From IMG/VR virus record IMGVR_UViG_3300049846_001081: a DNA stretch of 64,000 nt; one strand, written 5' to 3'. A program made the translations under genes and the position numbers. Below the pieces are notes generated by a model. That model saw only the letters and a program-made list of their open reading frames with translations. It ran no database searches and was not told the DNA's origin. The stretch is from a virus (Duplodnaviria > Caudoviricetes). This document shows positions 10,760-53,740 of this stretch, in pieces (the stretch's first letter is position 1; every line of letters begins with the position of its first letter).

Positions 10760-11190
10760 AAATGACAAAAAAATTTGATGAGTTAAATAACACATTCAAT
10801 GTATCCGGAGAAATAGTTTCAACAGAAGCAGAAACTTCTATTGAAAAAATAGAAAAAATTGTATCATCTGTTGATGATGTAAAAAAAGATTATGAATATA
10901 CAAGAGGAAATCTTTATTCCTTAATTGAAAAAGGACAAGAAGCAATTAATGGAATTCTTGAACTCGCTCAGGAAAGTGAAATGCCTAGAGCATACGAGGT
11001 TGCTGGTCAATTGATAAAAAATGTTGCAGATGCAACTGATAAATTAATGGACTTACAAAAGAAACTTAAAGATATTGAAGAAGAAAAAGTTTCTAAAGGA
11101 CCCACAACGGTTAATAATGCTCTTTTTGTTGGTTCAACTGCTGAATTAGCAAAACTTCTTAAGCAACAAACCGAAAATGAAAACATTTAA
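10756..11190 (+). CDS. gp16: Terminase small subunit gp16
   Basis: DYEYTRGNLY, PRAYEVAGQLIK, NNALFVGSTAEL motifs. Confidence 0.9.
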   Translation: MKMTKKFDELNNTFNVSGEIVSTEAETSIEKIEKIVSSVDDVKKDYEYTRGNLYSLIEKGQEAINGILELAQESEMPRAYEVAGQLIKNVADATDKLMDLQKKLKDIEEEKVSKGPTTVNNALFVGSTAELAKLLKQQTENENI

Positions 11191-11332
11191 ACAGTTTCAA
11201 GAAGATTGGAGCAATAAATATAAAAAGAGTATTGATTGTTCTAATCCGAAAGGATTTTCCCAGCGTGCCCACTGCGCGGGGAGAAAAAAAAGAGCAAAAG
11301 GTGAGCAAACCAAATCAAAACCAGTTGAGTAA
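11177..11332 (+). CDS. 51-aa basic protein with capsid-targeting-like N-terminus (not in ORF track)
   Basis: Hand translation MKTFKQFQEDWSNKYKKSIDCSNPKGFSQRAHCAGRKKRAKGEQTKSKPVE; its stop overlaps the next ATG. Confidence 0.7.
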   Translation: MKTFKQFQEDWSNKYKKSIDCSNPKGFSQRAHCAGRKKRAKGEQTKSKPVE

Positions 11333-13032
11333 TGCCAAAGTTAAAGACACATAAAACAGTTGAACAAATTGCTAAAAAGCATCGTCTTGACGTGTCTTTT
11401 ATTCAGAAGCAACTTGATATGGGTGAACCTATTGAACATGAACATACTAAAGATCATGAACTTGCAATGGATATTGCCCTCCAACATCTTGATGAAATTC
11501 CAGATTATTACACTCGTTTGAAAAAAATGGAGGCAGATGCCAAAAAGCATCATAAGAAATTTAAAGATGTTACTGAAGAAGGTCTTCGTGACTGGTTTGG
11601 CAAATCAAAATCAAAAGATGGAAAGTCTGGGTGGGTAAATGTTGTAACAGGTGGAACGTGTGCTAGTGATGAACCAGGAGAGGGTGTTCCTAAATGTGTT
11701 TCTTCAGCAAAAAGAGCAAGTATGACACCGGCAGAAAGACGTTCCGCAGCAAGAAGAAAAAAGCAAGCAGATCCAGGACAACAACAAAAATCTGGAGCAG
11801 CAAAACCAACATACGTTTCAACTGATAGTCCAAGAAAGAAAATGAAAAAAGAAGAAGTAGAACTTCAAGAAGTTAAAGACAAACCAAGGAAAAGTAGCGG
11901 TAAAAAGGATGCCTGTTACCATAAAGTAAAGTCACGTTACAGTGTTTGGCCAAGTGCATATGCATCTGGAGCATTGGTCAAATGTCGTAAAGTTGGTGCC
12001 GATAATTGGGGAACTAAATCGGAAGCAGTAGAAGAACAAAGATATTGCCCTTTGTGCGACAAAAGAGAAACTAGATCTGAGTGTTCTTATGGCGAAAAAG
12101 CATGGGATAAAGTTTCCGTTCAAGATCATGAATATTCTATGGCTCGTTCAGAACTAAGTACTATCCACGATGCTTTAAAAAGATTGGAACAAAAAATTGG
12201 TAAAGGTGAAGGTAATTTAGAGGCATGGGTACAATCAAAAATTACCAAAGCAGCAGATTATATTGACACTGCAGCAGACTATGTTGCAAGTGGCGAGATG
12301 AATGAAGGACAAAAGTGTTGGCCTGGATACAAGAAAAAAGGAACTCAAACACTTTTTGGTAAAAAATACAATCGCTGTGTAAAAGCAGAAGATGTAACTA
12401 TTGAAGATGCAGATGGAAATACATTTGCAGAAGTTGTTGATTTAATCAAACCAGAACCAATTAAAGGATTTAAAACACAAGTAAGTGAGGCAATGAGACT
12501 TCAAGCACAAACTGGAAACATTCTTGCAATTACTTTACTTTGGAGAGGAAAATATTATGCGGTTCGCATGTTTTTCCCCCAAACTAAACTTCCATCACGT
12601 CAAGATGTAACTGACGAAATTCAAAAAGTATATCCTGGGGCAAAAGTAGTCCATCATTCTGTTTCCGAATTTACTCCAGGACAACCTTTGATTCAAGCTT
12701 TTGGACCTCAAGGTGGAAGCACAGCGAAATTTGGACCAAATAAAAATTATGTAAAACCAATGGGAGAAGAGGTAGACATTGTAGAGGTTGCTGCATGGCA
12801 AAGAAAAGAAGGTAAAAATAAATCTGGGGGATTAAATGAAAAGGGCAGAAAGTCCTACGAACGCGATAATCCTGGTTCTGATCTAAAGGCACCATCTAAG
12901 AAAGTTGGTAATCCTCGTCGTGCATCATTCTGTGCAAGAATGAGAGGTATGAAAGAGAAACTGACTTCTCAAGAAACCGCAAGAGATCCTGATTCAAGAA
13001 TCAATAAGTCCCTTAGAGCTTGGAATTGTTAA
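11332..13032 (+). CDS. Mosaic Lys/Arg-rich putative internal virion protein
   Basis: 566 aa of short modules (HEHTKD..IALQHLDEIPDYY; KDACYHKVKSRYSVWPSAYAS; AWQRKEGKN...SFCARM) between gp16 and gp17. Confidence 0.65.
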   Translation: MPKLKTHKTVEQIAKKHRLDVSFIQKQLDMGEPIEHEHTKDHELAMDIALQHLDEIPDYYTRLKKMEADAKKHHKKFKDVTEEGLRDWFGKSKSKDGKSGWVNVVTGGTCASDEPGEGVPKCVSSAKRASMTPAERRSAARRKKQADPGQQQKSGAAKPTYVSTDSPRKKMKKEEVELQEVKDKPRKSSGKKDACYHKVKSRYSVWPSAYASGALVKCRKVGADNWGTKSEAVEEQRYCPLCDKRETRSECSYGEKAWDKVSVQDHEYSMARSELSTIHDALKRLEQKIGKGEGNLEAWVQSKITKAADYIDTAADYVASGEMNEGQKCWPGYKKKGTQTLFGKKYNRCVKAEDVTIEDADGNTFAEVVDLIKPEPIKGFKTQVSEAMRLQAQTGNILAITLLWRGKYYAVRMFFPQTKLPSRQDVTDEIQKVYPGAKVVHHSVSEFTPGQPLIQAFGPQGGSTAKFGPNKNYVKPMGEEVDIVEVAAWQRKEGKNKSGGLNEKGRKSYERDNPGSDLKAPSKKVGNPRRASFCARMRGMKEKLTSQETARDPDSRINKSLRAWNC

Positions 13033-13051
13033 TTTATAAGTAGGTTTCATT

Positions 13052-17843: not shown

Positions 17844-19532
17844 ATGGCAAAATTGTTTGGATTTTCTATTGAAGATAATGAACCATTATCTCCTGGAGTA
17901 ATCTCTCCCGTTCCACAAAATAGTGAGGATGGGAGTGATTTTTATCTTTCCAGTGGATTTTTTGGTTCTTATGTAGACATTGAGGGTGTTTACAGAACAG
18001 AATTTGATTTAATCAAAAGATATCGTGAAATGGCACTTCACCCAGAATGTGATAGTGCCATTGAAGATATTGTAAACGAAGCAATTGTTAGTGATACAAA
18101 TGATAGTCCTGTTTCAATTGAGTTATCAAATCTTAATGCAAGCGACGGGATAAAAAGAAAAATCAGAGAAGAGTTTAAACATATTCTAGAACTTTTAGAT
18201 TTTGATAGGAAGTCTCACGAAATATACAGAAATTGGTATGTTGATGGTAGATTATACTACCATAAAGTTATTGACATAAAAAATCCACATGAAGGAATTC
18301 AAGAACTTCGTTATATTGACGCAATGAAAATGCGTTACGTTCGCCAACAAAAACAAACTGAAAAGGATAAAAAGATTTATAGATTGGCTAATGTTAATGT
18401 TGACGATCCAATGAGTTATGAATTTCCAGAAATAGAGGAATATTTTGTTTATAATCCAAAAATGACTTATCCTACCACCAATCCATCTTCTTTAGGTGGA
18501 ACTGGTGGAATTAAATTTTCAAAAGATTCTATTACATATTGCACTTCAGGTCTTGTAGATAGAAATAAGGGATCAACTCTTTCATATCTCCACAAAGCAA
18601 TTAAGTCTCTCAATCAACTTCGTATGATTGAAGATAGTCTTGTTATCTACAGACTATCTCGCGCACCCGAACGTAGAATTTTCTACATTGATGTTGGAAA
18701 TCTCCCTAAAGTAAAGGCAGAACAATATCTTCGTGATGTAATGATGCGTTATAGAAATAAAATGGTCTATGATGCAAACACCGGAGAGATTCGCGATGAT
18801 AAAAAGTTTATGGCAATGCTTGAGGACTTTTGGCTTCCAAGAAGAGAGGGTGGTAGAGGAACAGAAATTTCCACACTTCCTGGCGGTCAAAATCTTGGAG
18901 AAATTACAGATATTGAATACTTCAAGAAAAAACTTTACCGTTCTCTAAATGTTCCACCATCAAGAATGGATGGAGAAGGTGGATTTAATCTTGGTCGTTC
19001 GTCAGAAATTCTTCGTGACGAAGTTAAGTTCAGTAAGTTTGTTGCTCGTCTAAGAAAGAGATTTTCTTATATGTTTAATGATATGTTGAAGACTCAACTT
19101 ATTCTTAAAAATATCATTACTCCCGAAGATTGGGCAATAATGGAGGAGCATATTCAATATGACTTTTTATACGATAATCATTTTGCAGAACTTAAAGATG
19201 CAGAACTTCTAAATGAAAGACTTAATATGGTTCAAATTGCAGAACCATATGTTGGAAAGTATTTCTCTCAGGATTATGTAAGACGTAAAATTCTTCGCCA
19301 AACTGATGAGGAAATTATTGAGCAGGATAAGATTATCAAAAAAGAAATTAAAGATGGAGTTATACCAGATCCAAATGCACCAGTAGATCCAGCAACTGGG
19401 TTACCTTTAGGACCAGAAACTGCAGGTATGGATTTGGGGCAACCAGTAATGGAACCAAATCTTGATGCTCAAGGTGCCGCAACAGAAGCAAGTGGAAAAA
19501 TAGCAGAAATGCCCAAGGGTGGCGAGATATAA
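17844..19532 (+). CDS. gp20: Portal protein gp20
   Basis: IYRLSRAPERRIFYIDVGNLP, EDFWLPRREGGRGTEI motifs. Confidence 0.97.
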   Translation: MAKLFGFSIEDNEPLSPGVISPVPQNSEDGSDFYLSSGFFGSYVDIEGVYRTEFDLIKRYREMALHPECDSAIEDIVNEAIVSDTNDSPVSIELSNLNASDGIKRKIREEFKHILELLDFDRKSHEIYRNWYVDGRLYYHKVIDIKNPHEGIQELRYIDAMKMRYVRQQKQTEKDKKIYRLANVNVDDPMSYEFPEIEEYFVYNPKMTYPTTNPSSLGGTGGIKFSKDSITYCTSGLVDRNKGSTLSYLHKAIKSLNQLRMIEDSLVIYRLSRAPERRIFYIDVGNLPKVKAEQYLRDVMMRYRNKMVYDANTGEIRDDKKFMAMLEDFWLPRREGGRGTEISTLPGGQNLGEITDIEYFKKKLYRSLNVPPSRMDGEGGFNLGRSSEILRDEVKFSKFVARLRKRFSYMFNDMLKTQLILKNIITPEDWAIMEEHIQYDFLYDNHFAELKDAELLNERLNMVQIAEPYVGKYFSQDYVRRKILRQTDEEIIEQDKIIKKEIKDGVIPDPNAPVDPATGLPLGPETAGMDLGQPVMEPNLDAQGAATEASGKIAEMPKGGEI

Positions 19533-19561
19533 ATAAAAACGATTAACTATTGGTATTAAAA

Positions 19562-19724: not shown

Positions 19725-20045
19725 ATGAAATCTTTCAAGCAATTTATCTCAGAGTCAGTTAATATTGCTGGTGATTTCACAGGAAATCTCTACATTGGTG
19801 CTCAACCAGAACAACCACAACAAGTTGGCGAAGAATATGTTGCCGATGTTATGTGGAACGGTAGTTTATATCGTTTAGAATTAGTTACTAAAACTGGAAT
19901 TCCATCAGTAAGAGATCTTGGTGAGCAATTACAATCTGATTATCCAGGAGCAGTTGTTCATCAAATTTATCCAGTAACAGAAAAGAATTTAAATATTAAA
20001 AACGCACAAAGATACCACCCATCAAAATTAGAATGGATTGATTGA
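19725..20045 (+). CDS. Hypothetical protein with capsid-targeting-like N-terminus
   Basis: Start at ATG 19725 gives MKSFKQFISE. Confidence 0.7.
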   Translation: MKSFKQFISESVNIAGDFTGNLYIGAQPEQPQQVGEEYVADVMWNGSLYRLELVTKTGIPSVRDLGEQLQSDYPGAVVHQIYPVTEKNLNIKNAQRYHPSKLEWID

Positions 20046-22071: not shown

Positions 22072-22722
22072 ATGAAACTTATTACTGAAGAGATTGAATC
22101 AGTAGAAGTTCTTACCGAAACGGTGAATGGTAAGAAGACTCTTTATATTCAAGGTCCTTTCCTCCAAACTGAAGTTGTAAACAGAAACGGTAGAATGTAC
22201 CGTATGCCTGTAATGGAAAGGGAGGTTAAGCGTTATACCGAGCAATATGTAAATAAAGGACGTGCTCTTGGAGAACTTGGTCACCCAGATGGACCAACGG
22301 TAAATCTTGATAGAGTATCACATAAAATTATTTCTCTAACTCAAGAAGGAAATAATTTTATTGGCAAGGCACAAATTCTTTCCACCCCAATGGGAAAAAT
22401 TGCCGAGTCTCTTCTCAGAGAAGGAGTAACTCTTGGTGTTTCTTCTCGTGGTATTGGTTCAGTAAAGCCAACAAGAGAAGGATATACGGAAGTTGGTGAA
22501 GATTTTATGCTTGCAACTGCTGCTGATATTGTTGCTGATCCTTCAGCACCCGACGCTTTTGTTCAGGGAATTATGGAAGGTAAAGAGTGGGTATGGGATG
22601 GTGGAATGCTCAGAGAGAAAGTTGCAGAGAATACAAAACAGAGAATAAATACTCTAGTTGATGAGCATATTCTTGAAGAATATAAACTATCATTATTCAA
22701 TGAGTTTTTAAACTCATTGTAA
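22072..22722 (+). CDS. gp21: Prohead protease gp21
   Basis: Start MKLITEE at 22072; GELGHP, GVSSRGIGS, DIVADPSAPDAFV. Confidence 0.95.
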   Translation: MKLITEEIESVEVLTETVNGKKTLYIQGPFLQTEVVNRNGRMYRMPVMEREVKRYTEQYVNKGRALGELGHPDGPTVNLDRVSHKIISLTQEGNNFIGKAQILSTPMGKIAESLLREGVTLGVSSRGIGSVKPTREGYTEVGEDFMLATAADIVADPSAPDAFVQGIMEGKEWVWDGGMLREKVAENTKQRINTLVDEHILEEYKLSLFNEFLNSL

Positions 22723-22776: not shown

Positions 22777-23943
22777 ATGTCTCGTGGAGATTTACAAGAA
22801 ATGGAAGTAGGCACTAAGCAATCCAAAACTGCTGTTAATGCAAACGCTAAGGCAGGGGAGGCAATGCCACATCTATCTGGTTCAACACCAGGACAAACTG
22901 GTGGATGGGAAGATTTAGGTGGTCCAGATCCTTCCAACTATCGTACAGATGATGATTCAGCAAAGTTGAAGACCCCAGGCGCAAGTCTTAAGCAAGTTAA
23001 AGATGTTGTGAATAAAGGTGCTAAACCAGCCGAAGCAATGAAGGGTGTTAAGGAAGAAGAAGAACTCGATGACGAAGATCTCATTGAAGAAGAGACTGAT
23101 GAAGATGAAGTAGTTGCTGAGGCTAAGGAAGAGGAAGAGGAAGAAGAAGGCGGTAAGAAAAAGGGTAAGAAAGAAGAAGAAGAGGAAGATGAGGATGAAG
23201 AGGAAGAAATGGAAGAGTCTTTTGATATTGAAGAGGATGTAAATGCTCTTCTATCAGGTGAGGAGCTCTCCGAAGAGTTCCAAGAAAAGGCACGTATTAT
23301 CTTTGAAGCTGCTCTTGTTTCAAGAGTTGCTCAAATCAAAGAAAACCTTGAAGAGCAATATGCGTTAGCACTTGCTGAAGAGGTTGAAGAAATCAAATCT
23401 ACTCTCAGTGAGCGTGTAGATGCATACCTTGAGTATGTTGCTGACGAGTGGATGCAAGAAAATGCACTCGTTATTGAAAATGGTCTTAAGACCGAAATGA
23501 CCGAATCATTCCTTTCTGGAATGAAGGAACTTTTTGAAGCACATTATGTATCAATCCCTGAAGATAAATATGATGTTCTTAACAGCATGGTAGAAAAACT
23601 TGATGACATGGAAACAAAACTCAACGAGCAAATTGAGAAGAATGTTTCCCTAAACAAGCGTCTCGCAGAGTCGGTTGCAGAAGGAATCTTTGAAAAAGTC
23701 TCTGAGGGCTTAGCAGCCACTCAGAAAGACAAGCTCGCTTCACTTGCCGAAAGTGTTGAGTTTGGAAGTGAAGAAGAATATCGTGAAAAACTGGAGATGC
23801 TTAGAGATTCATATTTCTCTAGCACGAAAGCTCCAAAAGCAAAATCCGAAAGTCTATCAGAACAAGTAGACAGTTCACCTGAAACTATTTCCGGTACAAT
23901 GTCTGCTTATCTACAGACTCTTAAGGCAGTTGCTAGAAACTGA
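22777..23943 (+). CDS. gp22: Prohead scaffold gp22
   Basis: Acidic poly-Glu, LSEEFQEKARIIFEAA, YLEYVADEWM; between gp21 and gp23. Confidence 0.92.
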   Translation: MSRGDLQEMEVGTKQSKTAVNANAKAGEAMPHLSGSTPGQTGGWEDLGGPDPSNYRTDDDSAKLKTPGASLKQVKDVVNKGAKPAEAMKGVKEEEELDDEDLIEEETDEDEVVAEAKEEEEEEEGGKKKGKKEEEEEDEDEEEEMEESFDIEEDVNALLSGEELSEEFQEKARIIFEAALVSRVAQIKENLEEQYALALAEEVEEIKSTLSERVDAYLEYVADEWMQENALVIENGLKTEMTESFLSGMKELFEAHYVSIPEDKYDVLNSMVEKLDDMETKLNEQIEKNVSLNKRLAESVAEGIFEKVSEGLAATQKDKLASLAESVEFGSEEEYREKLEMLRDSYFSSTKAPKAKSESLSEQVDSSPETISGTMSAYLQTLKAVARN

Positions 23944-23994: not shown

Positions 23995-25428
23995 ATGTTC
24001 CATTCCGAACAATTGCAGGAAAAGTGGGCACCTCTCCTCAACTATGAGGGTCTTGATCAAATCAAAGATTCGCACAGAAGAGCTGTAACCGCTGTCCTGC
24101 TAGAGAACCAAGAAAGATTTTTAAGAGAGCAAGCAGCATTTGACAATGGTTCAATGTCAATGCTCATGGAAGCCCCAACCAATGCAGGTAATGCTGCTGG
24201 TGCTCAGGGTGGTTTCGGTGGCTCTGCTTCAACCCCAACCGCAGGTTTTGACCCCGTTCTGATTTCATTGATCAGACGTTCAATGCCTAATCTGATCGCT
24301 TATGATGTTGCAGGCGTTCAACCAATGAGTGGTCCTACTGGACTCATCTTCGCAATGCGTTCACGCTACACCAGCCAGACTGGAACTGAGACTTTCTACA
24401 ACGAAGTTGATTCAGCATTCTCCGGTACTGACTCAGGATTTAACACCACCCTCAGCAATGACTTTGCTCAGGTAGGTTCTGGTATTGGTACAACTGCACA
24501 GTCAGGAAGCAACCCAGCTGTTCTGAACGCTTCTTCAGTAGCTGCTACCGACTACAACGTCGGTCAGGGTATGCCAACAGGTGACGCAGAAGCACTTGGC
24601 GATGCATCAGGTAACAACTTCAACCAGATGGCATTCTCAATTGAGAAAGTCACTGTTACTGCTAAGTCACGCGCTCTGAAGGCTGAGTACTCACTTGAGC
24701 TTGCTCAGGACCTTAAGGCAATTCACGGTCTGAATGCTGAAGCGGAACTCGCAAATATTCTCTCAACTGAGATTCTTGCTGAGATCAACCGCGAAGTTAT
24801 TCGTACCATCTACATGACTGCTGAAAAGGGTGCTTCACAGAACGTTGCAACCGCTGGTGTATTTGACCTTGATGTTGACTCCAACGGTCGTTGGTCAGTT
24901 GAGAAGTTCAAGGGTCTTCTGTTCCAAATTGAGCGTGATGCAAACGCTATCGCTCAGAGAACTCGTCGCGGAAAGGGCAACATCATCCTGTGCTCTGCTG
25001 ACGTTGCTTCAGCACTGACCATGGCTGGTGTTCTTGACTACACCCCTGCACTCAATGCTAACTTGACTGTTGATGATACTGGCAACACTTTTGCTGGTAC
25101 TCTCATGGGCAAATTCCGTGTTTATATTGACCCATATGCATCTAACCTGACTTCTGCTAACGCAGCACCTACAGGTGGCAACCAGTACTACGTTGTTGGT
25201 TATAAGGGTTCTTCACCTTATGATGCAGGTCTGTTCTATTGCCCATATGTTCCTCTCCAAATGGTACGTGCCGTTGGTGAGAACACCTTCCAGCCTAAGA
25301 TCGGCTTTAAGACCAGATATGGTCTTGTTGCTAACCCATTCGCTGAAGGAACCACTGTTGGCGCAGGTCGCCTCAATGTTAACACCAACCGCTACTATCG
25401 TAGAGTTGCTGTTAAAAATTTAATGTGA
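23995..25428 (+). CDS. gp23: Major capsid protein gp23
   Basis: GVQPMSGPTGLIFAMRSRY, TAKSRALKAEY, FQPKIGFKTRYG. Confidence 0.98.
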   Translation: MFHSEQLQEKWAPLLNYEGLDQIKDSHRRAVTAVLLENQERFLREQAAFDNGSMSMLMEAPTNAGNAAGAQGGFGGSASTPTAGFDPVLISLIRRSMPNLIAYDVAGVQPMSGPTGLIFAMRSRYTSQTGTETFYNEVDSAFSGTDSGFNTTLSNDFAQVGSGIGTTAQSGSNPAVLNASSVAATDYNVGQGMPTGDAEALGDASGNNFNQMAFSIEKVTVTAKSRALKAEYSLELAQDLKAIHGLNAEAELANILSTEILAEINREVIRTIYMTAEKGASQNVATAGVFDLDVDSNGRWSVEKFKGLLFQIERDANAIAQRTRRGKGNIILCSADVASALTMAGVLDYTPALNANLTVDDTGNTFAGTLMGKFRVYIDPYASNLTSANAAPTGGNQYYVVGYKGSSPYDAGLFYCPYVPLQMVRAVGENTFQPKIGFKTRYGLVANPFAEGTTVGAGRLNVNTNRYYRRVAVKNLM

Positions 25429-32628: not shown

Positions 32629-34765
32629 AGATCTTGTAGTAGAGCACAAGAAGGTTTCTACCGCTTGCTTTAACGTTCATACTCGTGTTCTGACGCTTCC
32701 TCTGTGGGAGAAAGCAAGTGGTCTTGTATATGACCTTCTGGTGGGTCATGAGGTTGGTCACGCTCTCTTCACTCCTGATGAGGATTGGTTGGAGAAAGTA
32801 AAAGTTCCTCAACAGTTTGTGAATGTGGTTGAGGATGCTCGCATTGAGAAACTGATGAAGCGCAAATATGCTGGACTTGCTAAGACTTTTTACAATGGTT
32901 ATAAAGAACTGAATGAAGATGACTTCTTTCAAATTAAAGAAGAAGATATCTCTACTTTTAATCTTGCCGACAAAGTTAATCTCTATTACAAGATTGGAAA
33001 CTTTGTAGAAATTCCTTTTGATAATTTTGATGAGATGCCTATCGTCCGTATGATTGGTGAGTGTGAGACTTTCTCTGATGTTCTGATTGCCGCAGAATTT
33101 CTCTACAAGTATTGTAAGAAAAAAAAGGAGCAACAACAAAAGGTTGCTAACTTTGATTCTCATGAAATGCGAGGAGATTCCCAATCCCCCGCTAATGAGA
33201 TTGTAGAGACAAATGACTCCTCTTCTGAACAAGATGGTGACAGTGATAACTCTCAACCTAAAGAGGACACTGGATCATATGGAGGAACCGCTCAGGGAGA
33301 TCAAACTCCAGCGAAGTCTTCTGGTGAAGAAAATGAACCTGAAGTTCGTACTGCTGACTCTTTGGAAGAAAAACTTCGTGACCTTGTTGGTAGTGATACT
33401 TATGAGAATAGTTATGTTGAAGTTCCGCAACTGAATCTGAATACTGTTATTGGTAGTAACTTTGAAGTTCATAAGGATATTAATAATTCTTTTGATCATC
33501 AACAGAAACTTCATAATGAACATGCAAAAGATAGGGGATTTACTCCAGTAAATCTTTACAAAGAATCTGATGCCGAGTTTCGGAAGTTTAAGACTTCTGC
33601 TCAGAAAGAAGTGAACTATCTTGTCAAAGAGTTTGAATGTCGTAAAGCGGCAGACCAGTATGCTCGTGCTTCAACTGCCCGCACTGGTGTTCTTGATACT
33701 ACTCGTCTTCATACCTACAAATACAATGAAGATCTATTCAAGAAAGTTTCGGTGATTCCTGATGGAAAGAATCACGGTCTTGTATTTGTTTTGGATTGGA
33801 GTGGTTCTATGTCCGATGTAATGCTTGATACTTGTAAGCAACTCTTTAATCTTGTGTGGTTCTGTAAGAAAGTTTCTATTCCTTTTGAGGTTTATGCTTT
33901 CACAAATGAATGGCGTCGTTGTGAGTATAATTATGAAGCAGAACAATATATTGCTGCAGATCGCACACCTCATTATGAGAAAAAAGAAGGTCTGTTGGTT
34001 GTAGATGAAACTTTTTCTATGATGAATATTCTCACCAGCAAAGTTTCTGGTAAGGAATTGGAGCACCAACTTCTTAATATTTGGCGTCTTGCTTATTGTT
34101 TTGGTAGGACTTATCATTCTCCTTACACTTATCCCAACCGTTTGTGTCTGTCTGGAACTCCTTTGAATGAAGCATTGATTTCTCTTTATCAGATTCTTCC
34201 TAAGTTTCAGAAAGAGAATAAACTTCAGAAGGTTCAGTGTATTGTTCTTACTGATGGTGAAGCGAATCAACTTGTTTATCATAAAGAAGTTCATCGTTCT
34301 TATTCTAAAGATCCTGTTCTTGGAACTGGGTATGTTCATTCTCACAACACTATTCTTCGTGATCGCAAACTTGGAACAACCTATAAAATTGATGAAGGAT
34401 ATCATGGATTTACAGATACTCTCCTCAAAAATCTAAAAGATAAGTTTGCATCAATGAATTTTATCGGTATTCGTGTTCTTGAAAGCCGAAATGTTTATCG
34501 TTTTATTCAACTTTATCACACTCAATCTGATAAGCAGTATGAAAAAATCCAGAGTGACTGGAAAAAACTGAAGAGTTTCACTATTACTAATTCTGGTTAC
34601 GATGCTTACTTTGGATTGTCCTCAACAGCCCTTTCTCAGGATACTGAATTTGAAGTTGCTGAAGATGCTACCAAGTCTCAAATCAAATCAGCATTTGCCA
34701 AGTCTCTGAAGACTAAAAAACTAAATAAAAAAGTACTGGGCGAGTTTATCTCTTTAGTTGCATGA
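32576..34765 (+). CDS. Metallopeptidase-motif plus vWA domain protein (CobT-like partner of CobS)
   Basis: Start MPVRHEIK at 32576; HEVGH plus EDARIE; vWA MIDAS LDWSGSM, SGTP, LTDGE. Confidence 0.8.
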   Translation: MPVRHEIKSQLAKLLATEDLVVEHKKVSTACFNVHTRVLTLPLWEKASGLVYDLLVGHEVGHALFTPDEDWLEKVKVPQQFVNVVEDARIEKLMKRKYAGLAKTFYNGYKELNEDDFFQIKEEDISTFNLADKVNLYYKIGNFVEIPFDNFDEMPIVRMIGECETFSDVLIAAEFLYKYCKKKKEQQQKVANFDSHEMRGDSQSPANEIVETNDSSSEQDGDSDNSQPKEDTGSYGGTAQGDQTPAKSSGEENEPEVRTADSLEEKLRDLVGSDTYENSYVEVPQLNLNTVIGSNFEVHKDINNSFDHQQKLHNEHAKDRGFTPVNLYKESDAEFRKFKTSAQKEVNYLVKEFECRKAADQYARASTARTGVLDTTRLHTYKYNEDLFKKVSVIPDGKNHGLVFVLDWSGSMSDVMLDTCKQLFNLVWFCKKVSIPFEVYAFTNEWRRCEYNYEAEQYIAADRTPHYEKKEGLLVVDETFSMMNILTSKVSGKELEHQLLNIWRLAYCFGRTYHSPYTYPNRLCLSGTPLNEALISLYQILPKFQKENKLQKVQCIVLTDGEANQLVYHKEVHRSYSKDPVLGTGYVHSHNTILRDRKLGTTYKIDEGYHGFTDTLLKNLKDKFASMNFIGIRVLESRNVYRFIQLYHTQSDKQYEKIQSDWKKLKSFTITNSGYDAYFGLSSTALSQDTEFEVAEDATKSQIKSAFAKSLKTKKLNKKVLGEFISLVA

Positions 34766-34986
34766 AGACTTACAAAGAATTTGTTACTGAAGCTGGAGAT
34801 TGGTGGCATCCAGATCCAAAAAAAGATCGTACTATAAGTGGATCGGGAAATAAAATGAGAGCGCGGGAAGATCGCGGAGATGATGTTTCCGTGCAAAAGA
34901 AACCCGATTACAGTAACAGACTTAAACCAGGTGAAACATATATGCAATTTGCAAAACGCAAACAATCAGAGGGGACTAATAGGTGA
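34762..34986 (+). CDS. Small protein with capsid-targeting-like N-terminus
   Basis: MKTYKEFVTE; CTAAATA at 34721-34727 upstream. Confidence 0.7.
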   Translation: MKTYKEFVTEAGDWWHPDPKKDRTISGSGNKMRAREDRGDDVSVQKKPDYSNRLKPGETYMQFAKRKQSEGTNR

Positions 34987-40768: not shown

Positions 40769-40800
40769 AAGAACGATTGATAAACCAACTACCTTTTACT

Positions 40801-41430
40801 ATGACCGCCCTCAAAGTCGGAACGATTGAGTATCTAAAAAATGTTCCTCTTTATGGTGATGAAATTGGATCATTTGCAGTAACAAGATATTCTGATAAAG
40901 ATATTTCTTTGTTTAAAGAAAACTTTGAGTCCTGGGTAAAACATCGCGAACTGTGTCTAAGCATTGGTGGTAGAGCACCTAATTTGTGTGATGCTTTTAC
41001 TGAAGGTATGTACTGCCTTTATAGTGGTTCTGTTCGTTATGTAAAAGTAGATCGTAGAAAAGCAGAATATAAAACATTTGGACCAGAAAAACTATCCAAT
41101 GCATCTATTGATACTTATTCTGAAAAAAACAAAGAAGGGGAACAAATAAAGTCATCAATTATTTTAGATGATTGTACATCTTTTGGTCCAACAAGTAAAC
41201 AAGATGCACTTTACTTTATGCATTTTTATCGTGACGGTAAAACTCTTGATGGATCTTTTGATTTGTATAGAATTGAAAATGATTTACTGTACTCTACAGT
41301 TATTAAAAATGATGGAACTACCTTTGCCGAAAAACAAAAGACAGGGCAAAGACCTCATTTTTCTTTGATGAAAAAAGTAATCATCCCAAATAACATTCAA
41401 CCCATTGAAAAAAATGTCAAACTTTGGTAA
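40801..41430 (+). CDS. Type II restriction endonuclease, Bsp6I-like (predicted GCNGC)
   Basis: GGRAPNLCDAFTE, SIDTY..EQIKSS, DCTSFGP, GQRPHFSL match recalled Bsp6I-family blocks; overlaps a C5 methyltransferase gene. Confidence 0.75.
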   Translation: MTALKVGTIEYLKNVPLYGDEIGSFAVTRYSDKDISLFKENFESWVKHRELCLSIGGRAPNLCDAFTEGMYCLYSGSVRYVKVDRRKAEYKTFGPEKLSNASIDTYSEKNKEGEQIKSSIILDDCTSFGPTSKQDALYFMHFYRDGKTLDGSFDLYRIENDLLYSTVIKNDGTTFAEKQKTGQRPHFSLMKKVIIPNNIQPIEKNVKLW

Positions 41431-42367
41431 TAAAACAATTGATCTTTTTGCTGGTATTGGTGGAGTTCGCATAGGATTTGAACGAGCAGGATTTCAAACG
41501 GTATTTGCCAATGATTTTGAACCAAAATGTAAATTGACGTATGATTTAAACTTTGATGAACCAAAATTATTGATAGAAGACATACGCAATATTTCTCCAG
41601 ATACTCTTCCAGACTTTAATTTTTTATTGGGTGGATTCCCTTGCCAAGCATTTTCTATTGCTGGTCATCGTCAGGGATTTGATGATGAGAAAGATCGTGG
41701 AAATTTATTTTTTTACATTGCAAAAATTCTTGAAACTAAAAAACCAGATGGTTTCTTTTTGGAGAATGTAAAAAATTTGTGTTCTCATGATAATGGTAGA
41801 ACATTTCAAATTATTGCTTCTGTTTTAAATGATCTCGGTTATCACCTTAACTATAAGGTATTAAACACAATGGAGTATGGAAATGTCCCTCAAAATAGGG
41901 AGCGTATTTACATTGTTGGATTTAAAGATGTTGAACGTGCAAATAAATTTAGGTTTCCAAATCCGAAACATTTGACAGTTACTGTGAAGGACTTGTTGGA
42001 ACCAGTTGTTGATGCAAAATATTATTATGAAAATAAACCTTTGTATGAAAAAATTAAAAATGATGTAAATGATGAAAACAAAATATATCAATGGCGAAGA
42101 GTTTATGTTAGAGAAAATAAAAAAAATGTATGCCCAACTTTAACTGCAAATATGGGAACTGGTGGTCATAATGTTCCCATTATCAGAGATTCTGTAGGAA
42201 TCCGCAAATTAACTCCATGGGAATGTTTGAGAATGCAAGGTTTTCCTGATACTTATAAATTACCAAAATTAAATAGTGATGGTCCACTATATACGCAAGC
42301 GGGTAATTCGGTAAGTGTTCCAGTTATAGAATCTATTGCTAGAGAAATTGCAAAAGTTTGTATGTGA
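41414..42367 (+). CDS. DNA cytosine-5 methyltransferase, M.Bsp6I-like
   Basis: DLFAGIGG, GFPCQAFS, ENV, PQNRER, RKLTP.EC..QGFP, QAGNSV; TRD IYQWRRVYVRENKKNVCPTLTANMGTGGHNVP. Confidence 0.92.
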   Translation: MSNFGNKTIDLFAGIGGVRIGFERAGFQTVFANDFEPKCKLTYDLNFDEPKLLIEDIRNISPDTLPDFNFLLGGFPCQAFSIAGHRQGFDDEKDRGNLFFYIAKILETKKPDGFFLENVKNLCSHDNGRTFQIIASVLNDLGYHLNYKVLNTMEYGNVPQNRERIYIVGFKDVERANKFRFPNPKHLTVTVKDLLEPVVDAKYYYENKPLYEKIKNDVNDENKIYQWRRVYVRENKKNVCPTLTANMGTGGHNVPIIRDSVGIRKLTPWECLRMQGFPDTYKLPKLNSDGPLYTQAGNSVSVPVIESIAREIAKVCM

Positions 42368-42384
42368 AACCGAACAAAAATTTA

Positions 42385-42408
42385 CGGGGTTCATCACCTC
42401 GTTTTTTT
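42385..42408 (+). terminator. Terminator closing the R-M cassette
   Basis: CGGGGT-tcatc-ACCTCG-T7; TATAAT follows at 42419-42424. Confidence 0.7.
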
Positions 42409-42484: not shown

Positions 42485-42919
42485 ATGACTAACCTAATGA
42501 AATATCAGGCTGCGGATCTTCCTGCATTGTTGGAAAGAATTAATCGCAATACAATTGGAATGGATGAATACTTTGATCGTATTTTTAAAATTCACGAAAC
42601 AACTTCCAATTATCCACCATATAATCTTGTTCAAGTTAGTAATGTAGAATCCCGACTTGAAATTGCTCTTGCTGGATTTAAAAAGGGAGAAGTTTATGTC
42701 TACACTCAAGACGGCAAACTTTTTATTGAAGGTCAGAAGGAGGATAAAGAAACAGACACCAGGTACGTTCACAAGGGTCTGGCTCAACGGTCGTTTACAC
42801 GTTCCTGGACACTCTCTGATGACACGGAAGTTAGATCAGTTGATTTTGAGGATGGGCTTCTAACGGTCACTCTTGGAAGAATTGTTCCTGATCACCATAA
42901 GAGGAAAGATTATCTCTAA
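42485..42919 (+). CDS. hsp20: Small heat-shock protein Hsp20
   Basis: NYPPYNL, LEIALAGF, HKGLAQRSFTRSWTL, DGLL; AGGAG RBS upstream of ATG 42485. Confidence 0.93.
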   Translation: MTNLMKYQAADLPALLERINRNTIGMDEYFDRIFKIHETTSNYPPYNLVQVSNVESRLEIALAGFKKGEVYVYTQDGKLFIEGQKEDKETDTRYVHKGLAQRSFTRSWTLSDDTEVRSVDFEDGLLTVTLGRIVPDHHKRKDYL

Positions 42920-42935
42920 ATAATTAAAAAAATCA

Positions 42936-43175
42936 ATGAAGTCTTTCAAAGAGTTTGAAGCAATCGCTTATAAAGGAGCAGTTCCCCATACTGTTTTTTC
43001 TGGAGGAAAAGCGAAAAAAATTCCTAAAGGAAAGGCAGTTCCTGTAAGAAGTCGCTCTAGTGCTGGTGGATTTGGTGGAGTTGGTGGTGGGTCTGCTCCA
43101 GGACCCGGTGGCGGTGCTGGAGGAACATCTGGTGCCTCTGGTAATGGTGGTGGAAACGGTGGTGATGGCGAATAA
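42936..43175 (+). CDS. Gly-rich small protein with capsid-targeting-like N-terminus
   Basis: MKSFKEFE; CTAAATA at 42916-42922; Gly-rich tail. Confidence 0.6.
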   Translation: MKSFKEFEAIAYKGAVPHTVFSGGKAKKIPKGKAVPVRSRSSAGGFGGVGGGSAPGPGGGAGGTSGASGNGGGNGGDGE

Positions 43176-49895: not shown

Positions 49896-50447
49896 ATGGA
49901 TTCTAAAGAACTGCGCGGTTTATACGAAGCATATGCTGATGTATATGCTCCTCAAGAAGAGATTGATGAAGCATCAAGAGCAGATGATACGACAAGAGCA
50001 AACATTGCTCGTTATGCTGGTAAAAAAGGTATTTCATTTGAACCAGGACCAAACTGGGACCCATCTGCTAATCGTGGAAGAGGTGCCCATTTAAATCCAA
50101 AGCAAAAGGAAAAGCAGCGTCGTAAAGCACTTCGTCAAGAAGAACTTGATATCTTTGATGTAGTCCTTGAGTTCCTCCAAGCAGAAGGATACGCAGAAAC
50201 TCTGGAAGAGGCAGAGTGGATGATGGCAAATGAATTGGATGCTGATGATATTGATGCTATTTTGGGGGAAGGCAAATCTTCTAGACCACGCTATCCTGGT
50301 GGCAGAGGTGTTCTAGACCAGGAAAGAAGAGATGAAAAGAGGGAAGCTTCTGCTGAAAATATGCGTGGTCATACAGCAGGTCCTGGTACTGTAACCAAGA
50401 ATCCAAAGAAACTTCGTAAGCAAAAAGCAATGGGCGAGCACGGCTGA
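49896..50447 (+). CDS. Late hypothetical, putative internal virion protein
   Basis: TATAAATA 49867-49874 upstream; shares KNPKKLRKQKAMGE with ORF 53748. Confidence 0.65.
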   Translation: MDSKELRGLYEAYADVYAPQEEIDEASRADDTTRANIARYAGKKGISFEPGPNWDPSANRGRGAHLNPKQKEKQRRKALRQEELDIFDVVLEFLQAEGYAETLEEAEWMMANELDADDIDAILGEGKSSRPRYPGGRGVLDQERRDEKREASAENMRGHTAGPGTVTKNPKKLRKQKAMGEHG

Positions 50448-50456
50448 TAGATAAAT

Positions 50457-50493
50457 CGGAAGGTTGCTCTAACCCACTTGACTTTTTAATTGA
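50457..50493 (+). repeat. 37-bp direct repeat copy 1 (promoter stem-loop element)
   Basis: CGGAAGGTTGCTCTAACCCACTTGACTTTTTAATTGA; 35/37 identical to 51029-51065. Confidence 0.85.
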
Positions 50494-50502
50494 TAGAGTT
50501 AT

Positions 50503-50536
50503 AAAAAAAGGAGGGGATAAAACCCCTCCTTTAATT
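50503..50536. terminator. Likely bidirectional terminator between convergent genes
   Basis: A-run, AGGAGGGG-ataaaa-CCCCTCCT, then T-rich tract. Confidence 0.75.
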
Positions 50537-50740
50537 TTATTTGGAACTTACAAAATCATTAATGATTTCTGCTTGTTTTAGAACTTCATTTAGAGTTGGA
50601 AAATCTGGGTAATCCATTGGCACTTGTTTCTTTTTATCTTCATTCCAACAACGAGCAGTGTCATATTCAATACTAAACTGGTCATTCAGCATATTATATG
50701 CTTGCTTAAAAATTTCAAAACGTAGTTCGTAGGGCGTCAT
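50537..50740 (-). CDS. Hypothetical protein, the only credible minus-strand gene
   Basis: MTPYELRFEIFKQAY...PTLNEVLKQAEIINDFVS; AGGAG RBS on minus strand; ends at terminator. Confidence 0.75.
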   Translation of the reverse strand: MTPYELRFEIFKQAYNMLNDQFSIEYDTARCWNEDKKKQVPMDYPDFPTLNEVLKQAEIINDFVSSK

Positions 50741-50824
50741 AAGTATTCTCCTAATGTGTATTGTGTGTGATGTGTAGTAACATCAATAGTACACTAAACT
50801 AAATATCTAAAAAAGTCAACTATA

Positions 50825-51022
50825 ATGAAAACATACCAGCAGTTCTCTGAAGATATTGAAGCACGAAGAAAACAACTTCGTCAAAGGTCAAGAGAGCAAA
50901 TGCAGAAGTTCAAAGAGAAATCTAGAGCTTCTGCAGATGCTCAAAGGCAAAAAGCAGAAGATGCTGGAGAGCGTAAAAGATTAAAGGATGAGATTAAAAG
51001 GGAGTTAAGAGACGAGAACTAA
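50825..51022 (+). CDS. Small charged protein with capsid-targeting-like N-terminus
   Basis: MKTYQQFSE; CTAAATA 50799-50805. Confidence 0.7.
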   Translation: MKTYQQFSEDIEARRKQLRQRSREQMQKFKEKSRASADAQRQKAEDAGERKRLKDEIKRELRDEN

Positions 51023-51028
51023 ATAAAA

Positions 51029-51079
51029 CGGAAGGTTGCTCTAACTCACTTGACTTTTTAGTTGAGTGGGTTTTATAAT
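51029..51079 (+). promoter_or_regulatory. Direct repeat copy 2 with stem-loop sigma70 promoter for the tRNA
   Basis: TTGACT 51050-51055, N18, TATAAT 51074-51079; ACTCACT/AGTGGGT stem around the -35. Confidence 0.75.
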
Positions 51080-51088
51080 ATCTTTATC

Positions 51089-51162
51089 GGGGATATAGCT
51101 CAGTTGGTAGTAGCACTTGCTTTGCAAGCAAGATGTCATCGGTTCGAGTCCGATTATCTCCA
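51089..51162 (+). tRNA. trnA: tRNA-Ala(UGC), CCA not encoded
   Basis: Acceptor GGGGATA/TATCTCC with G3:U70, anticodon stem CTTGC/GCAAG with TGC, T-loop GGTTCGAGTCC. Confidence 0.95.
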
Positions 51163-51192
51163 TTCTAAATACTTGAAAGAGTATATGTAAAA

Positions 51193-52422
51193 ATGAAAGA
51201 AGGAAGCGTTATTGAAGGTATATTCGCAATGTATTGTGCCCTTGTTTTAATAGATCCTGATGATGGTAATGATATTAATAAAATAAAATTAAAAATAAGA
51301 AATATGAGATTGAATACTCAATTGAAGCAAGAAATTAGGGGCGGAAAGACCTCAAGAACTGTTGAGTTTCATAAATTGTATCCAAAAGATGATGATTTTG
51401 AAATGCAAGTCGTTGATGCTAATCCTCAACAATATAAGCATATGAGTGCTGGAGAAAAATATTTCGTTATTCAGGGTAGAAGGCAAACAACTGGACCTGA
51501 TGGTTACACTGCTCCTCCTGATTTTGTTCAAGTCAAATTAGATGTAACTTTGAAGGCTAGTGAGGTTGAAAGAGCGTATGGGATGATACTGAAAGATAAT
51601 TTTGGGGAAAGTGGAGATTTTGGTAAAATTGCGGAAAAGGTTGATACTCTACTCAAAGCAAAACATTCTCAGTTTTTTAGACAACTTGTAATGGCAAAAA
51701 ATAGATTTTTAAAAAATAAAACTACCGATGTTGTTCAATATAACGTCATAGCAGATGGTATAGGTGGCGAAAGTTCTGGTGGAGCTATAAAGTCGGATGT
51801 TTTAATAAGAATAGTGGCAAATGGTCAGAGTATCCTTAAGTATAATATAAATTTTTCTCTTAAAAGTGATGCGGTTACAGTTGAAAATATTGGGTTGATT
51901 AGGGGCGCAAATGAAGTTTATAATATGTTTGAGGGTGGATTGACTGGAAGAGCAAAGATCCAAGCAAAAATGTTTATTGATGAAATAAATGAAACAGCTA
52001 TGGGAAATTCTGAAATTGGAGTTAAAAAAGGGACCGTTAATAGGGTTGCTTTAACGGCACTATTTGAAGTTATAAAAAATAATCTTCCTAGCGGAACATC
52101 CAGATCTAATGAATATTATGATTATCTTGAAAAAGCTGCTTTTGGTAAAGATAAGGCTTCAATTGTTATTGCTGATAAAAATAAATTAAAACAAATGACT
52201 CCAGATTATATTAAATATTTAAGAACATACGGAAATAATGGTAAACCGTTGCTTTTGGAGGTAAAAGCAACTTCTGGTGATATTAGATTTGCTCCACCTG
52301 GACAATCAAAGGAATTTTTATTTAAACTGAGGCTTAAATCGGAACACGGAACCATTGCAAAAATGATGCTTGACGTTGGCAATTTAACCCATGGTGGAAG
52401 AAATTTTAGAAAATTGAAATAA
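51193..52422 (+). CDS. Hypothetical protein, possible PD-(D/E)xK-fold nuclease
   Basis: N-terminal EGIF helix, ADG...KSDV...NFSLK pattern; CTAAATA 51165-51171 upstream. Confidence 0.5.
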   Translation: MKEGSVIEGIFAMYCALVLIDPDDGNDINKIKLKIRNMRLNTQLKQEIRGGKTSRTVEFHKLYPKDDDFEMQVVDANPQQYKHMSAGEKYFVIQGRRQTTGPDGYTAPPDFVQVKLDVTLKASEVERAYGMILKDNFGESGDFGKIAEKVDTLLKAKHSQFFRQLVMAKNRFLKNKTTDVVQYNVIADGIGGESSGGAIKSDVLIRIVANGQSILKYNINFSLKSDAVTVENIGLIRGANEVYNMFEGGLTGRAKIQAKMFIDEINETAMGNSEIGVKKGTVNRVALTALFEVIKNNLPSGTSRSNEYYDYLEKAAFGKDKASIVIADKNKLKQMTPDYIKYLRTYGNNGKPLLLEVKATSGDIRFAPPGQSKEFLFKLRLKSEHGTIAKMMLDVGNLTHGGRNFRKLK

Positions 52423-52459
52423 TTAATAATCAATAAATAAAGGTATAAGATTAAACAAT

Positions 52460-53740
52460 ATGAAGAGTTTCTTTACATTTTTATCAGAAGCAACACAATC
52501 GCAAGCATCTCAGCAGGCTCAAAAACTGGGTCTAAAAGGTGATGGCCATGGAGGTTGGCTGGATCGTTCTGGTAAAGTAGTAGCAAGAACTGATAAAGGA
52601 AAACTCAAGTTTATTGATGGGCGTCAAGCAGGAACAGCAGAACCTGCAACCGAACCAAGACAAGCAGGACCTGCTCCAACACCACAACCACAAACAGCAC
52701 AAGCACCTGCACCAGTTCCACAACAAGTACCTGGCTCAGCACCACAAGATCAAGAACAAGGGCAAGAACTTCCACCACTGACTGTTGTATTTGGACGCTT
52801 CAATCCACCAACAGTCGGACACGAAAAACTTCTGAAGTCTGCAAAGAGAATTTCTGCTGGTGGAGATATTAAAATCTATCCATCAAGAACACAAGATCCA
52901 AAGAAAAATCCACTTGATGCAAACAAGAAAGTTTCGTTTATGAAGAAGATGTTTCCTGAATTTAAGGACAATATTATTAACGACGAAGAAATGAAGACTA
53001 TTTTCAATGTTCTTGTTGCAGCGAATGAAGATGGTTATACAAGTGTAAATATTGTTGTTGGTTCTGATAGACAAGCGGAGTTTGAGAACCTAGCACAAAA
53101 GTATAATGGGGATCTTTATACCTTTGATCAAATTCGTGTGATCTCTGCTGGCGTCCGTGATGCGGATGCTGAAGGTGTGGAAGGAATGTCTGCATCTAAA
53201 ATGAGAAAAGCAGTAATGGATGATGACTTCAATTCCTTCCGCAGAGGAACACCAAAGACACTTGATGATGGAGATACTCAAACATTGTTTAATGCAGTTC
53301 GTCAAGGAATGGGTGTAAAAAAAGTAAAGATTAAAAAAGAAAATTATAATCTCTGGGAAATTGCTCCAAAGTATGATATGAGAAATCTTCGTGAAAATTA
53401 TATTTCTGGAAAAATTTTTAGAATCGGTGATAAAGTTCAGAACTTAAATACTGGATTAATTGGTGAAGTGATGCGTAGAGGCACCAACTATCTAATCTGT
53501 GTGACAGAAGATGGAAATATGTTTAAATCTTGGATTAAGGATGTAATGGAATATACTGAAGTTAAAATGGATAGAATGTATAGAACTCCAGGGAAACCAA
53601 ACACACTTGCTGGAACTACTGGGTATTTGAAGTATGCAGCAAAGCAAACTCCTGGGTCTTCATTGGGGAAACAAAATATTCAAGTAGGTGGTCGCTCATT
53701 TTTGGATTTAATAAATAAGTATAAGGTAAAAAGTAAGTAG
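52460..53740 (+). CDS. Cytidylyltransferase-like (HxGH) nucleotidyltransferase
   Basis: FGRFNPPTVGHEKL, VVGSDR, MSASKMR; N-terminal MKSFFTFLSE and Pro/Gln linker. Confidence 0.82.
   Translation: MKSFFTFLSEATQSQASQQAQKLGLKGDGHGGWLDRSGKVVARTDKGKLKFIDGRQAGTAEPATEPRQAGPAPTPQPQTAQAPAPVPQQVPGSAPQDQEQGQELPPLTVVFGRFNPPTVGHEKLLKSAKRISAGGDIKIYPSRTQDPKKNPLDANKKVSFMKKMFPEFKDNIINDEEMKTIFNVLVAANEDGYTSVNIVVGSDRQAEFENLAQKYNGDLYTFDQIRVISAGVRDADAEGVEGMSASKMRKAVMDDDFNSFRRGTPKTLDDGDTQTLFNAVRQGMGVKKVKIKKENYNLWEIAPKYDMRNLRENYISGKIFRIGDKVQNLNTGLIGEVMRRGTNYLICVTEDGNMFKSWIKDVMEYTEVKMDRMYRTPGKPNTLAGTTGYLKYAAKQTPGSSLGKQNIQVGGRSFLDLINKYKVKSK

Follow-up and report, generated by a model that had tools for sequence, protein, structure and literature searches.

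A shared N terminus on six dispersed genes

The 64,000-nucleotide (nt) stretch of viral DNA analyzed here, hereafter the window (IMG/VR record IMGVR_UViG_3300049846_001081), contains six dispersed open reading frames (ORFs) whose products begin with the same short motif, MK[ST][FY]xxF. All lie on the + strand, as does every gene of the window, and each is named by its first position: ORF 11177 (11177..11332; 51 residues; N terminus MKTFKQFQED), ORF 19725 (19725..20045; 106 residues; MKSFKQFISE), ORF 34762 (34762..34986; 74 residues; MKTYKEFVTE), ORF 42936 (42936..43175; 79 residues; MKSFKEFEAI), ORF 50825 (50825..51022; 65 residues; MKTYQQFSED), and ORF 52460 (52460..53740; 426 residues; MKSFFTFLSE). 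An initial annotation had likened these N termini to the capsid-targeting sequence (CTS) of the phage T4 internal proteins (IPs), and had proposed that the proteins, otherwise unrelated, are packaged in the prohead and injected with the DNA. The six frames were found on the + strand exactly as it described them, with the claimed starts and N termini, and their bodies proved unrelated to one another on comparison. Because each has intact homologues elsewhere, we conclude that all six are real genes. DNA comparison gave 74 to 78% identity between the window and T4-like cyanomyoviruses, e.g., S-SM2 and S-SCSM1; as judged by its sequence, the window belongs to a T4-like cyanomyovirus and encodes a prohead protease of the gp21 type, a gp22 scaffold, and gp23.

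Counts of tagged genes refer to the 64,000-nt window. The motif MK[ST][FY]xxF stands at the N terminus of 6 of its 70 genes, against 0.003 expected from composition, a frequency at ORF starts far above the chance level against which the initial annotation had asked that it be measured. A six-frame count gave 7 occurrences, compared with a mean of 0.065 and a maximum of 1 over 200 shuffles; a chance origin of the six tags was rejected on both grounds. The shorter pattern MK[ST][FY] occurs eight times in the six-frame scan, and six of the eight are the ORF starts, while K[ST][FY]xxF is found internally just three times in 20,298 residues. Position 4 is F or Y and position 7 is F in all six ORFs. 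A rule score built from T4 determinants only was bimodal, with the six tagged genes scoring 4 to 6 and all 64 others 3 or less. Strict matches to the tag in relatives number about 1 to 3 per genome, below the window's count.

Late-promoter-like motifs precede four of the six genes, just where the initial annotation had placed them. CTAAATA lies on the + strand at 34721..34727, 41 nt upstream of the ORF 34762 start and, as had been stated, within the vWA/peptidase-like gene (32549-34765); at 42916..42922, 20 nt upstream of ORF 42936; and at 50799..50805, 26 nt upstream of ORF 50825. ATAAATA at 52433..52439 (+) lies 27 nt upstream of ORF 52460, and S-CREM2 carries TATAAATA upstream of its tagged orthologue of this gene. 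Among stand-alone relatives of ORF 34762, all 14 distinct upstream regions keep the motif, and so do all 14 from relatives of ORF 42936. Of 11 distinct relatives of ORF 50825, only 2 have it; in most of those that lack it, the stop codon of the upstream gene overlaps the ATG. ORFs 11177 and 19725 sit in late operons and have no promoter of their own, and (T)ATAAATA at 19529..19535 (+) stands ahead of the 19562/19725 gene pair.

Within the window both motifs are strongly biased to the coding strand (CTAAATA, 10 on the + strand versus 0 on the - strand; ATAAATA, 23 versus 1). The combined motif [AC]TAAATA is found 14 to 45 nt upstream of gp13, 15, 18, 19, 20, 22, and gp3 and of the four tagged genes, and likewise ahead of the genes at 49896, 51193, 53748, 55829, and 56221. 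In the replication block (27 to 49.8 kb), it occurs near a gene start only ahead of ORFs 34762 and 42936. The distribution of the motif suggests that the tagged genes may be expressed late. Short metatranscriptome contigs are 100% identical to parts of 50175-53591, including 50826-51092, although DNA carry-over is possible for these and they show neither strand, 5' ends, nor timing.

The protease that the initial annotation had invoked is encoded at 22072..22722 (+). Its product is a gp21-type prohead serine protease (Pfam Peptidase_S77, E = 8e-37; phrog_207, head maturation protease, E = 5e-82) and would be the enzyme that removes the leaders. The adjacent gene at 22777..23943 (+) encodes the gp22 scaffolding core protein, as identified by DNA similarity to the annotated gp22 of S-SM2 and others, homologues of which carry PF25623; by analogy with T4, gp22 is presumed to be the docking partner of the leaders. 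When gp23 is aligned with its T4 counterpart, L-M-E (residues 57 to 59; codons at 24163..24171, + strand) falls at the site where T4 gp23 is matured, LTE↓A; the arrow, here and below, marks the boundary after Glu. Since the window gp23 has LME↓A at the position of T4 LTE↓A, the specificity of the protease appears to be kept in this phage. A canonical hydrophobic-x-Glu site at which the leaders could be cut occupies positions 8 to 10 in ORFs 19725 (ISE↓S), 34762 (VTE↓A), and 52460 (LSE↓A), and the other three ORFs have no such site.

Homologues of the tagged proteins

ORF 52460 encodes a product of roughly 46 kDa that consists of the leader MKSFFTFLSE↓A, a conserved small module (residues 11 to 55), a disordered linker of P, Q, and A (residues 56 to 102), a HIGH-type nucleotidyltransferase, and a small beta domain. 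The sequences TVGH at residue 118 and SASKMR at residue 244 correspond to motifs of the (H/T)xGH and ISxxxxR types. In the structure model, which is of low confidence outside residues 105 to 290, the core has a predicted local distance difference test score (pLDDT) of about 65 to 87; a helix is predicted at residues 4 to 12, and this leader helix was given no weight. A search with Foldseek identified archaeal NMNAT, NadD, and PPAT as the best matches (E of about 1e-5; template modeling [TM] score by target, 0.6 to 0.7), and the fold search did not separate NMNAT from PPAT. The protein scored 20.2 bits against Pfam CTP_transf_like, under the cut-off of 21 for membership at the family level, and a sequence search of the PDB gave no match. 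We refer to it as NMNAT-like.

The NMNAT-like protein has thousands of homologues. In an alignment of 120 of these, 77 to 95% identical overall, M1, K2, S3, F4, F7, L8, E10, and A11 are each kept in 117 to 119 sequences, and the variable leader positions are 5 (F/L/S), 6 (N/Q/R/T/K), and 9 (S/T). The protein is about 58 to 62% identical to ORF91 of S-SCSM1, which has the same gene neighborhood and is among the 45 proteins detected by mass spectrometry in CsCl-purified virions of that phage (PMC9602691). NMNAT-like proteins are listed in the virions of S-CBWM1, S-SZBM1, and S-SCSM1, to which S-CREM2 adds the cytidylyltransferase ORF154; contamination by abundant cytoplasmic protein was left possible for them (PMC10665884). 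For S-SCSM1, S-SZBM1, S-CREM2, and S-CBWM1, the two papers give detection in the virion and no loading mechanism (PMC9602691, PMC10665884).

The orthologues detected in virions of three T4-like cyanophages carry the tag: S-SCSM1 begins MKSFLQFLKEA, S-CREM2 MKNFSSFLTEA, and S-SZBM1 MRFRQFIIEA, the last one residue shorter with the F..F-I-x-E-A spacing unchanged. Further orthologues begin MKSLFQFLNEA (Bellamy), MKKFSAFLKEA (P-SSM4), and MKSFLNFFSEA (S-B43). For Bellamy gp170 (6001-7236 of the stretch read), the annotated start lies 16 codons downstream of MKSLFQFLNEA, and the deposited protein is without its leader. Beside the P-SSM4 cytidylyltransferase gene (5123-5925 of the stretch read), two small genes start MLSFKSFNQ and MLSFKAYLAE; these MLSF starts are a variant of the leader with Leu for Lys at position 2.

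ORF 19725 (phrog_1742) lies between the portal gene gp20 and the protease gene gp21, and its product is the leader followed by a small alpha/beta domain. The family is found in 135 isolate genomes, and its N terminus reads MKS[FY]xQF[ILMV]xE[SA] over 120 homologues; S-RIM8 has MKSYNEFISE and S-SCSM1 has MKTFKQFMSE. The core (residues 33 to 80) is homologous to residues 393 to 442, which follow QVSE↓A, of a 566-residue modular, Cys-rich, basic protein also encoded in the window (11332..13032, + strand; phrog_727, with a DUF6321-type C terminus). This modular protein is a homologue of the virion protein ORF29 of S-SCSM1, and a structure search with the ORF 19725 product likewise returned S-SCSM1 ORF29 and DUF6321 proteins; the query model is of low confidence outside residues 35 to 95, and its predicted leader helix was given no weight.

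ORF 34762, whose start overlaps the stop of the vWA/peptidase-like gene, encodes the leader MKTYKEFVTE and a basic GDWWHPDP peptide, and its family is represented in 264 isolate genomes. In 49 IMG/VR loci, the module either stands alone after the leader Glu or lies inside proteins of 100 to 700 residues. Stand-alone members have the leader M[KR][ST][FY]x[EQ]F(hydrophobic)xE[AS]. When internal, the GDWWHPDP module directly follows a Glu in 20 of 20 occurrences examined, mostly as [VIM]-x-E (NVNE↓A, NMSE↓A, EIQE↓A, VVYE↓S, SVNE↓A, TVKE↓A, TINE↓R, EIDE↓S, and VVSE↓A), and in S-RIM8 gp147 the boundary is TIRE↓A. On these sequences, the module boundary coincides with a gp21-type site whatever lies upstream. 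This is the arrangement that release by the protease from both the fused and the stand-alone format would predict.

ORF 11177 overlaps the end of gp16, and the gene for the modular virion protein is next downstream. Its leader, MKTFKQFQE, is followed by a basic Cys/His peptide (WSNKYKKSIDCSNPKGFSQRAHC). More than 570 relatives are present in IMG/VR, and the cultured phage Bellamy also has a gene of this type; among the 80 IMG/VR relatives that were aligned, 79 begin MKTF and one has K for M, F7 and E9 are invariant, and the order gp16, ORF 11177 gene, modular protein gene is retained in 73 to 77 loci. In S-SM2 the peptide forms the C-terminal module of gp108 (142 residues), which looks, from its sequence, like a fusion of two tagged genes.

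ORF 42936 follows hsp20; its product starts with the leader-like MKSFKEF, continues with a basic segment (KKIPKGKAVPVRSRSS), and ends in an acidic tail rich in Gly. Intact copies occur in 25 IMG/VR relatives, each placed between hsp20 and the gene at 43273, with MK[ST][FY]xEF conserved. In the product of ORF 50825, the leader MKTYQQFSE is followed by a helical, highly charged peptide; 14 IMG/VR relatives have the gene intact, with the N terminus MKT[YF][HQ]QF[SN]ED, between mazG/49896 and the NMNAT-like gene. Relatives of both thus show conserved synteny, in T4-like cyanophage contexts. These homologues all came from IMG/VR, since searching isolate phage genomes by tblastn with the two ORFs gave nothing beyond a single weak match (E = 6e-3). 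After removal of the leader, four of the five small products would be basic, with masses of 4.8 to 7.4 kDa and an isoelectric point (pI) of about 10, and the remaining one is the acidic alpha/beta domain, at 10.8 kDa.

Every aligned member of the tagged families has Phe at position 7 and either Phe or Tyr at position 4. Where DNA loci were available, in four families, the conserved leader residues are encoded by several synonymous codons, including G- or C-ending ones. Because synonymous codons vary where the residues are fixed, the constraint revealed by these sequences is on the peptide, rather than on the mRNA or a recombination cassette; conservation at the nucleotide level, or as a cassette relic, was rejected for the same reason.

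Several related loci carry further sequences of this kind. Modules of the 566-residue protein recur in S-RIM8 gp147, S-SCSM1 ORF29, and P-SSM4 gp160, where they differ in order and number and are often bounded by hydrophobic-x-Glu; its gene product is likely, from sequence, to be a protease-processed polyprotein of head-internal peptides. In S-SZBM1, ORF192 (3504-4001 of the stretch read) has the N terminus MKTFKQYITE↓A, after which come Cys-rich modules belonging to the polyprotein family. Directly downstream of it is ORF191, an orthologue of ORF 19725 that begins MKSFKSFLSE↓S.

Comparison with T4 and a packaging interpretation

In T4, the first ten residues of IPIII are enough for packaging, and mutagenesis assigned residues 4 and 7 to targeting and residues 8 and 10 to processing; gp21 cleaves after the Glu of an L/I-x-E motif, and Asp at position 10 blocks cutting without blocking targeting (PMC9026906). 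The CTS of IPI, IPII, and IPIII was described by Mullaney and Black in 1996, as reviewed in PMC9026906 and PMC3012670. The resemblance to these sequences that the initial annotation had noticed was borne out by a control scan, in which the DNA tag pattern of the window, applied to T4, recovered ipII and ipIII (MKTYQEFIAE), ipI (MKTFKEFTST...), and gene 61.1 (MKTFKEFIKE); the one further match was an unrelated frame of 16 codons. Gene 61.1 (18966-19130) encodes a hypothetical protein of 54 residues with a full CTS-like leader and adjoins the primase gene.

The window proteins share with the T4 CTS the N-terminal M-K-T-(Y/F)-x-E-F pattern with aromatic residues at positions 4 and 7; three of them also share the hydrophobic position 8 and the Glu at position 10, followed by Ala or Ser. 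As in T4, their genes are dispersed rather than gathered in one operon, have late expression signals, and specify mostly small, basic, mutually unrelated bodies, in a phage that encodes a gp21-type protease and a gp22 scaffold. The residues conserved in the leaders coincide with those tied by T4 genetics to targeting and cutting. Because coliphage T4 and cyanophages share the tag, it seems to be ancient within the T4 superfamily and not peculiar to T-even phages. A literature search found no paper linking the CTS with cyanophage proteins, although key subscription papers on cyanophage proteomes were outside its reach.

The two systems also differ. The window phage is a cyanomyovirus (Kyanoviridae), very far from Tequatrovirus, and the T4 system has been characterized experimentally, whereas that of the window is proposed here from sequence. 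The bodies show no similarity to IPI, IPII, or IPIII, and three members have noncanonical or absent cut sites. Unlike T4 internal proteins, two of the window bodies also occur as Glu-delimited beads within a modular virion protein, and a third forms the C-terminal part of the longer S-SM2 protein. As a head-carried enzyme delivered with the DNA, the ORF 52460 product would resemble T4 Alt, an ADP-ribosyltransferase that is packaged, trimmed by gp21 at both ends (PMC9026906), and injected; it is, however, a HIGH-type nucleotidyltransferase nearest to NMNAT, NaMNAT, and PPAT folds. In the giant phages phiKZ, 201phi2-1, and SPN3US, a prohead protease related to gp21 cleaves many head-internal proteins after Glu (PMC9026906), but there the motif is S/A-x-E, propeptides are long, and a short MKT(F/Y)xxF address is not described.

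From this comparison, the six genes probably encode head-internal proteins that are addressed to the prohead by a T4-type leader and then trimmed by the protease; head targeting of the set as a whole is likewise probable. We envisage that the genes would be transcribed late, from [AC]TAAATA-type promoters or within late operons, and that the N-terminal helix M-K-(S/T)-(F/Y)-x-x-F would dock to the scaffolding core, gp22 and its partners, as the shell grows around it. The protease would then cut after the Glu at position 9 or 10, and the freed mature protein would stay in the head with the DNA. The cargo would thus be the NMNAT-like nucleotidyltransferase together with four small basic peptides and a single small domain, acidic and of the alpha/beta type. 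For this phage, we infer docking, cleavage, and retention, as well as ejection into the host. Our confidence in head targeting is higher for ORFs 52460, 19725, and 34762 and lower for ORF 42936, because the latter lacks the canonical cut site. The system would be of a known kind in a new lineage, that of the cyanomyoviruses.

Several observations weigh against this interpretation. The evidence for this phage is sequence based, detection in virions comes from orthologues, and the docking partner was taken over from T4 by assumption. At positions 7 to 9, ORF 11177 has F-Q-E and ORF 50825 has F-S-E instead of L/I-x-E, and ORF 42936 has no Glu at either position 9 or 10. The ORF 11177 family is conserved over its whole 51 residues, so that the leader does not stand out, and in S-SM2 a leader-like KTFEEFRE precedes the module internally; the motif is thus not strictly N-terminal. 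Published virion evidence exists for one of the six tagged families, that of ORF 52460. The proposal that the tagged proteins are packaged is supported for the orthologues of the NMNAT-like enzyme in cyanophage virions (PMC9602691, PMC10665884); the 76%-identical orthologue of ORF 19725 in S-SCSM1, ORF30, is not flagged as a virion protein in the study that detected 45 of them.

The same absence would be expected if ORF 19725 encoded a core protein that is degraded, and it enters into a serious alternative, one that we regard as a substantial possibility though short of probable: the proteins are targeted to the head, but most are not effectors, the small basic peptides and the ORF 19725 domain being structural internal proteins that neutralize DNA charge or accessories of the prohead core like T4 gp67/gp68 and IPII/IPIII. 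These would exit the head together with the DNA and do nothing further in the next host. The size and pI of four of the five small mature products fit such a role, as does the location of ORF 19725 in the gp20-gp21 interval, the site of T4 core genes 67 and 68. The bodies of ORFs 19725 and 34762 belong, as modules, to a conserved modular virion family and not to accessory genes that evolve fast, that of ORF 11177 is a module of a longer S-SM2 protein, and the ORF 11177 peptide is 88 to 100% conserved among its more than 570 relatives, unlike proteins engaged in an arms race. The NMNAT-like enzyme, on the other hand, is plainly nonstructural, and IPI and Alt of T4 set a precedent for tagged cargo that acts in the host. 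The small basic proteins could equally be DNA-associated or core-type internal proteins, as IPII and IPIII of T4 may be. Judged by sequence, the set is not made of novel effectors, because ORFs 19725 and 34762 are free-standing modules of the modular virion family and ORF 11177 is an S-SM2 module.

Two further explanations would deny the tag any present role in packaging. The shared N terminus might be a generic feature of late genes, such as an AT-rich, unstructured 5' coding region that helps translation to start or a helix used by other machinery, with the proteins acting in the infected cell. The stretch encoding MK[ST][FY]K[EQ]F is indeed AT rich, several tagged genes have a short or no obvious Shine-Dalgarno sequence upstream, and published virion evidence is confined to one of the six families; most late genes of the window, however, are without the motif, the fixed residues use G- or C-ending codons as well as others, and the conserved positions are those of T4 targeting and cutting. 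The Glu boundary moreover persists inside larger proteins, far from start codons, and tagged orthologues have been found in virions, so we consider this explanation improbable. Alternatively, the tags could be functionless relics of common descent or of recombination cassettes, in which a promoter and a 5' coding stub were copied before different genes, as at the T-even IP locus, where the conserved CTS-coding 5' ends are thought to help swapping (PMC9026906). Four of the six genes do combine a similar promoter motif with the leader, but the six leaders differ in DNA, drift within families is confined to synonymous sites, the stretch between promoter and ATG varies among the genes in both length and sequence, and two members, ORFs 11177 and 19725, are without a promoter of their own. 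Positions 1 to 4, 7, 8, and 10 are under strong purifying selection over hundreds of homologues, which is not expected of a relic, and we regard this origin as very improbable.

Under the packaging interpretation, a T4-type address and protease site on every T4-like NMNAT orthologue examined would provide a specific, testable loading mechanism. The papers that report NMNAT-like and cytidylyltransferase enzymes in virions could not tell true cargo from contaminants (PMC10665884). The leader would also supply a rule by which head cargo could be predicted from sequence in aquatic phages, which are abundant and mostly uncultured. A bolder and rather doubtful extension is that T4-like cyanophages use an ancient portable address in two interchangeable formats, the same small modules reaching the head as Glu-delimited beads of a modular virion protein or as leader-tagged late genes, and that the NMNAT-like enzyme is injected. 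If so, sequence alone could reveal which proteins uncultured cyanophages inject, and the enzyme would be delivered before phage transcription, possibly pre-empting host defenses that deplete NAD. Delivery of an NMNAT-like enzyme at infection would fit current ideas on NAD-depleting defenses (cited in PMC12801897); the role in anti-defense that the initial annotation had suggested for the tagged cargo is speculation.

Gene order and neighboring genes

In gene order, the window has a VrlC-like gene followed by gp13, 14, 15, 16, 17, 18, 19, 20, 21, 22, 23, and gp3. Next come uvsY, uvsW, gp55, gp47/46, the vWA/peptidase-like gene, cobS, gp45, gp44/62, regA, and hsp20, and then gp43, uvsX, gp41, mazG, a block of odd charged proteins, gp61, and nrdA/B. 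Between regA and hsp20 lies an overlapping gene pair (40733-42408) that includes a C5-methyltransferase-like gene starting at 41414.

The region 49896-55784 is a block of highly charged proteins driven by late promoters. ORFs 49896 and 53748 share the module KNPKKLRKQKAMGE, and their S-SCSM1 homologues, ORF89 and ORF92, are virion proteins; the S-SCSM1 homologues of the genes at 56221 and 11332 are virion proteins as well. Within the block, ORF 51193 (409 residues) has its own CTAAATA motif, gave no PHROG match, and is present in 1 of 16 related loci; it looks, from this distribution, like a lineage-specific insertion. ORF93 of S-SCSM1, also a virion protein (11627-11836 of the stretch read), has a leader-like motif at its C terminus (...KKKRTFKEFLEYIE).

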